Shown here one piece after another: positions 126 through 30,774 of a DNA stretch of 64,000 nucleotides. Below the pieces are notes generated by a model. It saw only the letters and a program-made list of their open reading frames with translations, was not told the DNA's origin and searched no databases. Every line of letters starts with the position of its first letter. The stretch's first letter is position 1. Position numbers and translations under genes: made by a program. Source of the DNA: Escherichia coli (GTDB lineage: Bacteria; Pseudomonadota; Gammaproteobacteria; Enterobacterales; Enterobacteriaceae); assembly GCF_003334355.1 (NCBI RefSeq), contig NZ_QOWP01000004.1; one strand, given 5' to 3'.

Positions 126-199
126 TTCACCACCTCTGAGTAGAGGTGCTATTCTACCACTGCTGGAGAGGAAGAAAATCTAGTGCTGAAAAAATGATA

Positions 200-343
200 T
201 CACCACGGGATAAACTGGTTAATGGCACAAATTCCGCTGAAAAATTGTACATCCTGATCGCACATCATGTTGAATACCTGCGCCCAAAGCAGCAAGCAAG
301 CCAACACCACGACAACCAGAACGACCCATCGAAACTTTTTCAC
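200..343 (-). CDS. mgrB: MgrB, 47-aa membrane peptide, negative feedback regulator of PhoQ
   Basis: Reverse-strand frame reads (GTG)[46 protein letters not shown] then TGA; GTG start with GGAG about 9 nt upstream; not in supplied ORF track. Confidence 0.8.
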
Positions 344-501
344 TCCAATCTCCGCTTCACCTACCTTATGTCATTAAACTAGCATGCGTTAGTTAAACAG
401 CGCCTAACTATGTCGATATTCGTGCTTTTTCGGAATGAGTAGCTTGCTTCAGCGCATATTGCCGCTACGATTAAGCGAACATAAAAAGAGAAGAGGTTGT
501 A

Positions 502-741
502 ATGCGATTCATCATTCGCACAGTTATGCTGATAGCACTGGTATGGATAGGATTATTACTCAGCGGATATGGCGTTTTGATTGGAAGCAAAGAGAATGCC
601 GCAGGATTAGGTTTGCAATGTACCTATCTGACTGCCAGAGGCACCAGCACGGTACAATACTTGCACACTAAAAGTGGTTTCTTGGGGATAACAGATTGCC
701 CACTGTTACGTAAAAGCAATATCGTGGTCGATAATGGTTAA
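502..741 (+). CDS. yobH: YobH, 79-aa small protein of unknown function
   Basis: ATG ORF of 79 codons with AGAGG RBS; sits between mgrB and kdgR as expected. Confidence 0.8.
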   Translation: MRFIIRTVMLIALVWIGLLLSGYGVLIGSKENAAGLGLQCTYLTARGTSTVQYLHTKSGFLGITDCPLLRKSNIVVDNG

Positions 742-28227: not shown

Positions 28228-29097
28228 ATGAATATGCTGGAAAAAATCCAGTCTCAGCTGGAACATTTGAGCAAATCAGAGCGCAAAGTTGCCGAGGTCA
28301 TTCTGGCTTCGCCCGATAACGCGATCCATTCGAGTATTGCTGCTATGGCACTGGAAGCCAATGTTAGCGAACCGACGGTGAATCGTTTCTGTCGCAGCAT
28401 GGACACGCGCGGTTTTCCTGATTTTAAACTTCATCTGGCACAGAGTCTGGCGAATGGCACTCCCTATGTTAATCGCAACGTCAATGAAGATGACAGCGTT
28501 GAATCATACACAGGGAAAATATTTGAGTCCGCAATGGCAACGCTCGATCATGTCCGTCATTCACTGGATAAATCTGCCATCAACCGCGCCGTCGACTTGC
28601 TCACTCAGGCAAAAAAAATCGCCTTTTTCGGATTAGGCTCTTCAGCCGCCGTTGCCCACGATGCGATGAATAAGTTCTTTCGTTTTAATGTTCCGGTGGT
28701 GTACTCCGATGATATTGTGCTGCAACGCATGAGTTGTATGAATTGTAGCGACGGAGACGTGGTGGTGCTGATTTCTCACACTGGAAGAACAAAAAATCTG
28801 GTCGAGCTGGCGCAGCTGGCTCGCGAAAACGACGCAATGGTGATTGCCCTCACCTCTGCGGGTACCCCGCTCGCCCGGGAAGCAACGCTGGCAATTACCC
28901 TCGACGTACCGGAAGATACTGACATTTATATGCCCATGGTTTCTCGACTTGCACAGCTGACCGTGATAGATGTGCTGGCGACAGGATTTACTTTGCGACG
29001 CGGTGCAAAATTCAGAGATAACTTGAAGCGGGTCAAGGAAGCGCTGAAGGAATCGCGTTTTGATAAGCAGTTACTTAATTTAAGTGACGATCGCTAA
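28228..29097 (+). CDS. hexR: HexR (YebK), RpiR-family regulator (HTH + SIS domain)
   Basis: 289-aa ORF, ATG start; divergent from zwf. Confidence 0.9.
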
Positions 29098-30709: not shown

Positions 30710-30774
30710 GTTCAATGATAGTTCAACAGATTTCGAATATTCTGAAGCAAACTTGAACTTATCATCAGGCGAAG

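Follow-up and report, generated by a model that had tools for sequence, protein, structure and literature searches.

mgrB provides the feedback brake on the PhoQ/PhoP system, and losing it leads to colistin resistance in Klebsiella and to trimethoprim tolerance in E. coli. MgrB represses PhoQ/PhoP signaling by negative feedback on the PhoQ kinase, and its promoter (PmgrB, as PmgrB-yfp) is a PhoP-dependent reporter, the brightest of a set of PhoP reporters (Lippa & Goulian 2009). PhoP binding to the mgrB promoter has served as a positive control in EMSA, and IS insertions between the mgrB PhoP box and the start codon have been selected in E. coli. For E. coli, the gene (b1826) is listed with a PhoP binding site written as ATAGTTAG and CTGTTTAA separated by three dashes (Harari et al. 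2010, supplementary file 17, Figure S2), and the TSS table of Kim et al. 2012 gives the mgrB sequence from -50 to +1 as ATATCGACATAGTTAGGCGCTGTTTAACTAACGCATGCTAGTTTAATGACA. The same table places two other PhoP-activated promoters of E. coli in the same register: borD has TGTTTA at -41..-36, TGTTTA at -30..-25, and a -10 hexamer TACGAT, and slyB has TGTTTA at -41..-36, GGTTGA at -30..-25, and a -10 hexamer TATGAT. At the upstream TSS of phoP P1, where the position of the proximal half-site alone was read, TGTTTA lies at -30..-25.

We analyzed a stretch of 64,000 nucleotides of E. coli DNA (hereafter, the window), with positions counted from its first letter. The window begins inside the E. coli yebO-mgrB-yobH-kdgR region. 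Its first 900 bases were matched in 5,425 of 5,426 complete E. coli genomes, the best match per matching genome having at least 95% identity, and the annotation beneath these matches comprised yebO, mgrB, yobH, and kdgR. The K-12 mgrB gene (b1826) occupies 1908623-1908766, and adding 1,908,423 to a window coordinate gives the NC_000913.3 coordinate. The features of the locus are listed below, with the basis of each in brackets.

200..343 (-): mgrB coding sequence, 47 codons plus the TGA stop at 202-200 (ORF list, NF007635, PF13998, RefSeq)
341..343 (-): GTG initiation codon (first start codon after the in-frame TGA at 373-371)
350..353 (-): Shine-Dalgarno GGAG, followed by the 6-nt spacer ATTGGA before the GTG (sequence)
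344..369 (-): 5' UTR, 26 nt (TSS table of Kim et al. 2012)
374..379 (-): second GTTTAA, at -10..-5, overlapping the -10 hexamer TAGTTT (TSS register, PWM, conservation)
376..384 (-): extended -10 element TGcTAGTTT (position relative to A369)
381-376 (-): -10 hexamer TAGTTT, at -12..-7 (register to the TSS)
384-383 (-): TG of the extended -10, at -15/-14 (register to the TSS)
394..399 (-): promoter-proximal half-site TGTTTA, at -30..-25, including the first GTTTAA at 398-393 (Harari list, PWM, conservation)
400..404 (-): spacer GGCGC, 5 nt (sequence)
405..410 (-): promoter-distal degenerate half-site TAGTTA, at -41..-36 (Harari list, conservation)
428..451 (+): conserved block, TTTCGGAATGAGTAGCTTGCTTCA in E. 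coli and TTTAGGAATCATnnACTTGTTTCA in other genera (alignments of 28-35 genera)
502..741 (+): yobH, the divergent neighbor, 79 aa, ATG start (ORF list, K-12 gene order)

The minus-strand frame at 200..343 encodes MgrB. It was listed as a 47-codon ORF with a GTG start when the cutoff of the ORF listing was 20 aa, and its protein matched the MgrB equivalog NF007635 (NCBIfam) over its full length (positions 1-47 of 47, 89.9 bits against a cutoff of 40) as well as Pfam PF13998 (E = 2.8e-18). RefSeq annotates mgrB at the window locus, and its mgrB CDS has the same coordinates and the same GTG in K-12 and in one identical strain. The preliminary description had called this frame mgrB, and the protein indeed aligned end to end with the MgrB reference. 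In an alignment of 12 orthologs, W20, D29, D31, F34-C39, N42, P46, and W47 were invariant, all of which the window protein carries; M1, K2, K3, R5, and W6 were likewise invariant in the 12-sequence MgrB alignment. The protein thus has the makeup of an MgrB: it is about 47 aa long, hydrophobic near the N-terminus, and ends in the conserved motif. The gene order expected of mgrB, with a divergent yobH on one side and yebO on the other, was found at the window locus. yebO was located 3' of mgrB in the representative genera examined and in three of three divergent lineages, and yobH was present in two of those three. The NCBI family is now named 'PhoP/PhoQ regulatory lipoprotein MgrB', and residues 13-16 of the window protein (VLAC, with C16) resemble a lipobox. 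In some E. coli genomes (e.g., 2015C-3121, L087), the yobH 3' end is occupied by a copy of IS1, which leaves the mgrB promoter untouched.

The gene is missing from the default ORF list because it is shorter than 60 aa, not because of its GTG. The preliminary description was right that the ORF track (at least 60 aa by default) lacks mgrB; of the two reasons that it offered, a size cutoff applies and an ATG-only rule does not, as the ORF lister accepts GTG. What the default list does contain is a 78-aa ORF running the other way (146..382, +), which is taken to be spurious. A filter of 60 aa loses small genes that start with GTG.

The 51-mer of Kim et al. 2012 maps exactly to window positions 419 to 369, and the mgrB TSS is A369 (NC_000913.2 1906816, minus strand; 46 reads, UTR of 26 nt, from one high-throughput data set). 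Comparison with this mapped TSS, as proposed in the preliminary description, gives positions of -41..-25 for the PhoP box and -12..-7 for TAGTTT. With 12 nt between it and the -10 hexamer, the box replaces a -35 element. A consensus scan detected no sigma-70 -35/-10 pair at the mgrB promoter, which fits what an activator-dependent promoter would show. A genomic SELEX peak (intensity 8.3) was reported in the mgrB/yobH spacer at about window position 413 (NC_000913.2 1906860), in the section of that study on flagellar (sigma-28) promoters; we found no convincing sigma-28 promoter at this peak.

The PhoP box is the direct repeat TAGTTA-GGCGC-TGTTTA at 410-394 (-), with the canonical 5-nt spacer. 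The arrangement (T/G)GTTTA-N5-(T/G)GTTTA was recognized at these positions, with the proximal half matching TGTTTA at 6/6 positions and the distal half at 4/6. Counted between their GTT cores, the two halves are 10 bp rather than 11 bp apart, which makes the exact register of the weak distal half-site (4/6) arguable. The published b1826 site, here ATAGTTAG-gcg-CTGTTTAA, corresponds to window 411-393 (-). We built a PhoP log-odds matrix from the 46 other distinct sites of Harari et al. 2010, leaving b1826 out. With this leave-one-out PWM, the 19-mer at 393-411 (-) scored 13.49 bits, which was the top score in the mgrB-yobH spacer and ranked third among 127,964 window positions; about 0.003 matches of such strength were expected in 344-420. 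The PhoP box suspected in 344-420 by the preliminary description was therefore found by the matrix, at 393-411. The score is below the median of the known sites (13.5 versus about 15.5 bits). The repeat at 410-394 is very probably the box of a canonical PhoP-activated promoter that, together with the mgrB gene, makes up 200-410 (-), and the corrected operator reads TAGTTA-N5-TGTTTA at -41..-25.

Other matches to the PhoP matrix in the window were all on the minus strand, at 16907-16925 (15.8 bits), 28568-28586 (14.8 bits), and 30711-30729 (13.5 bits). The first two outscore the mgrB box and the third equals it. The first is located at the 3' end of holE, the second within yebK, and the third between pykA and lpxM, which are convergent; all three are probably chance matches. 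In the mgrB-yobH spacer, the second-best match (CTTTTTATGTTCGCTTAAT, 470-488, minus strand), which scored 9.1 bits and ranked 22nd in the window, overlaps both the TSS and the leader of yobH.

To follow the promoter across genera, we used the loci from one scan of species-representative genomes with the MgrB alignment, which gave 80 loci, or 81 with the window. The genera sampled were Escherichia, Citrobacter, Salmonella, Klebsiella, Raoultella, Enterobacter, Lelliottia, Kluyvera, Kosakonia, Phytobacter, Buttiauxella, Cedecea, and others, and the 81 upstream sequences, that of the window included, were all distinct. The proximal NGTTTA was present in all 81 loci, 47-54 nt before the start codon. 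The distal hexamer was CAGTTA in 48 of the 81 and TAGTTA in five, and most of the others were also of the NNGTTA type. The spacer of the box varied in sequence between genera and was fixed in length. Most loci had a TAnnnT-type hexamer 12 nt past the box (34 of them TAACCT), the extended -10 TG was retained in 79/81, and 47/81 had CA at the predicted transcription start. The blocks conserved in the alignments were the box, TG-n-TAnnnT, GGAG, and GTG, and a PhoP box was also found in three more divergent lineages.

The preliminary description had quoted a minus-strand string with two GTTTAA hexamers as candidate PhoP half-sites, while noting that their spacing was not canonical. The string and both hexamers (398-393 and 379-374) are present as described. 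The upstream hexamer was correctly assigned, being contained in TGTTTA (399-394), but the downstream one, 19 nt away, gave a box of just 0.93 bits. The doubt about the spacing was justified, as the hexamers repeat with a period of 19 nt rather than 11, and the true partner of the proximal half-site is TAGTTA, 11 bp upstream with a 5-nt gap. GTTTAA occurs 39 times in the window, against 32.8 +/- 5.4 expected, and is thus not enriched. About 0.36 same-strand GTTTAA pairs within 30 nt are expected per window, so the hexamer pair is not significant by itself and finding one is unsurprising. The true signal is the 19-mer at 393-411.

Given that both hexamers match the half-site core GTTTA and are oriented with mgrB, they could be imagined to pair as a PhoP operator of non-canonical spacing, 13 nt apart. 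We regard this as extremely unlikely. The 19-nt period is neither 11 nor 22, and GTTTAA-N13-GTTTAA does not provide two conserved half-sites in the 11-bp register. The boxes that can be built on the second GTTTAA scored 0.93 and -3.65 bits, versus 13.49 for the canonical box, and the hexamer itself sits at -10..-5, in the -10 contact of the polymerase. It was found in two of the 81 loci, the window and Escherichia sp. L003, and is missing from the other 79 orthologous promoters, where ACCTGG, TCCTGG, ATTTAG, and similar sequences occupy the position, whereas the TAGTTA-type partner is conserved. A single GTTTAA pair per window is also unremarkable, as noted above. Because its exact GTTTA core overlaps the -10 element, the second hexamer might alternatively act as an auxiliary, low-affinity PhoP half-site of Escherichia that occludes the -10 at high levels of phospho-PhoP and so caps mgrB transcription; for Yersinia PhoP-regulated promoters, a figure legend assigns repression to binding sites that overlap the TSS or lie downstream of it. 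This is very unlikely as well. The hexamer has no good partner in the 11-bp register (CTAACGCA is weak, and the total is 0.93 bits), it is 3 bp out of phase with the main box, and its conservation does not extend beyond Escherichia. That PmgrB is the brightest PhoP reporter does not suggest self-capping either. We read the second GTTTAA as a coincidence within the -10 region that is specific to Escherichia, and the operator is the canonical box at 410-394.

The 5' end of the gene was also considered from both sides. The preliminary description proposed a GTG start behind a GGAG ribosome-binding site, and both were borne out: the GTG at 343-341 opens the 47-aa ORF and is where the RefSeq CDS begins, and GGAG at 353-350 lies 6 nt before it. 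Its statement that the frame has no in-frame ATG applies to the N-terminus but not to the whole frame, as codons 26/27 (268-263) are ATG ATG. These internal codons, or a start further upstream as in the 58-93-aa 'MgrB' forms with upstream starts in databases for other genera, could in principle be used for translation in place of GTG 343-341, yet there is next to no chance of this. Upstream initiation in E. coli is opposed by the in-frame TGA at 373-371, which is the nearest in-frame stop and lies upstream of the mapped TSS, and by the 26-nt leader, which holds no in-frame start codon. An internal start would discard MgrB residues 1-25, a hydrophobic, presumed membrane segment that is conserved. 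The GGAG is placed 6 nt ahead of GTG 343-341 and was retained in nearly all aligned orthologous leaders. The published cloning primer for E. coli mgrB starts at the GTG (GTGAAAAAGTTTCG), and a start-codon mutation, GTG>GTA, was reported among colistin-resistant isolates of K. pneumoniae, which likewise argues for initiation at this codon.

The extended forms of MgrB in databases all have V at the position aligned with M1, and their extensions are mutually unrelated. Database mgrB products of 51-93 aa carry V at the true M1 (P0023, P0026, P0014, P0060, P0061, P0063, P0074; L084-L086), and in the three divergent lineages the gene-caller products begin upstream and have 61, 67, and 93 aa; further database entries, of 51-76 aa, have the same V. 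These misannotations arise because mgrB starts with GTG, and in other genera the 5' end of the gene is often wrongly extended by gene callers.

Translation of mgrB from GTG is nearly invariant among the orthologs. Across 85 loci, the codon aligned with M1 was GTG in 84 (the window and 83 others), TTG in one, and ATG in none, as raw counts mainly from Enterobacteriaceae. Within the 81 loci of the main scan, the numbers were 80 for GTG, one for TTG (Kluyvera cryocrescens, L015), and zero for ATG, and the three more divergent lineages, recovered by profile search and contig look-up, had GTG at the M1-aligned position. The scan pattern behind most of the loci (DVQFFSGI) is independent of the start codon. 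In the same mgrB loci, the synonymous sites of codons 3-8 were scrambled, with codon 3 split between AAA (42 loci) and AAG (39 loci) and ten different codons in use at position 5; the adjacent yobH had an ATG start in 79 of 79 loci. A role of the GTG in base pairing was considered and dropped, as the leader and early coding region showed nothing unusual in RNA structure (z = 0.04). We also dropped a second SD-like GGAG overlapping the GTG (GGAGTG) as a conserved feature, as positions -3/-2 vary between genera.

The near-invariant non-ATG start suggests selection for a weak start codon in mgrB. Tentatively, and with somewhat more doubt than confidence, we propose that this weak start codon is a selected part of the PhoQ/PhoP feedback circuit, and that the conserved degeneracy of the distal half-site may likewise set the activation threshold. 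Under the mechanism that we favor, phospho-PhoP would bind as a dimer to the direct repeat at 410-394, substituting for the -35 contact, and would thereby bring sigma-70 RNA polymerase to the extended -10 TGcTAGTTT (384-376), where the conserved TG may offset the poor -10 hexamer. Transcription starts at A369 and gives a 26-nt leader with GGAG, and translation from GTG 343-341 yields the 47-aa membrane peptide MgrB, which according to the literature feeds back to inhibit PhoQ. The weak GTG may cap the MgrB output per transcript and be kept by selection for this reason. By pairing a strong PhoP-dependent extended -10 promoter with a poor initiation codon, the circuit could fix how much gain MgrB production has, and perhaps also how noisy or how Mg2+-dependent it is. 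If this reading is true, a change of GTG to ATG should over-repress PhoQ. The near-invariant GTG is a small, testable hint of tuned translation efficiency in this feedback loop.

In 79 of the 81 loci, the gene upstream of mgrB and divergent from it was yobH, and the two starts were separated by 156-168 nt except in a single locus (L024, 284 nt). The yobH TSS, at window position 478, was represented by just 2 reads. The conserved block at 428-451, with the consensus TTTAGGAAT(C/G)ATnnACTTGTTTCA, is outside the PhoP box, about 59-82 nt upstream of the mgrB TSS and at -50..-27 relative to the yobH TSS, and TTGCTT (444-449) within it is likely the yobH -35 hexamer. Compared by eye with the block, the consensus sequences of an RcsAB box, an EvgA box, a KdgR operator, a Fur box, a marbox, and CpxR, sigma-E, and sigma-28 sites each gave partial or mis-spaced matches and were rejected. 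Measured from the weak yobH TSS, the mgrB PhoP box is about 76 nt upstream and in reverse orientation, and from this placement co-regulation of yobH by PhoP is possible. A ChIP study in Salmonella lists mgrB and yobH together among the intracellular RpoD gains.

On the other side of mgrB, a separate conserved promoter of the extended -10 type, TGgTAGAAT at 159-151 (-), serves yebO, whose published TSS is T144 (32 reads). We detected no intrinsic terminator between the mgrB stop (200) and yebO, therefore read-through from mgrB is possible. A perfect hairpin, CACCTCT-actc-AGAGGTG at 130-147 (-), covers the yebO Shine-Dalgarno sequence and could form solely in transcripts that start upstream of the yebO TSS. 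Sequestration of the yebO Shine-Dalgarno by this hairpin in read-through transcripts was considered and rejected, as perfect pairing of the hairpin is confined to Escherichia and other genera do not conserve it.

The gene, the promoter, and the PhoP site are already known and represent ordinary biology. Three points were not stated in the literature that we searched, namely the near-invariant non-ATG start, the conserved degenerate distal half-site, and the conserved extended -10 TG; these are refinements and not a new kind of element. Exact coordinates of the start codon, the PhoP box, the -10, and the TSS help to judge promoter and start-codon variants in clinical genomes.

Compared with the known systems, the locus is identical in kind to E. 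coli K-12 mgrB (b1826, formerly yobG) and its promoter mgrBp in gene, promoter, and gene order. The K-12 promoter 51-mer from -50 to +1 is present as an exact copy, with no difference in window 200-420. A single SNP relative to K-12 lies downstream of mgrB, where window position 147, in the promoter region of yebO, has A and K-12 has G; the yebO hairpin of K-12 has a G.U instead of an A-U pair there. The mgrB gene of K. pneumoniae, which is the main chromosomal target of colistin-resistance mutations, is an ortholog with about 70% protein identity and a GTG start. Its layout of PhoP box, -10, and Shine-Dalgarno and its distance from box to start are the same as in E. coli, while its -10 region reads TGcTATCCT and it lacks the second GTTTAA. 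Among the E. coli promoters of the same TSS table, mgrB shares with borD, slyB, and phoP P1 the direct repeat with a 5-nt spacer and the lack of a -35 hexamer, and with borD and slyB also the 12 nt to a TAnnnT -10 hexamer, but it differs in its degenerate distal half (TAGTTA / CAGTTA), conserved in that form, and in its conserved extended -10 TG, which is absent in borD and slyB.
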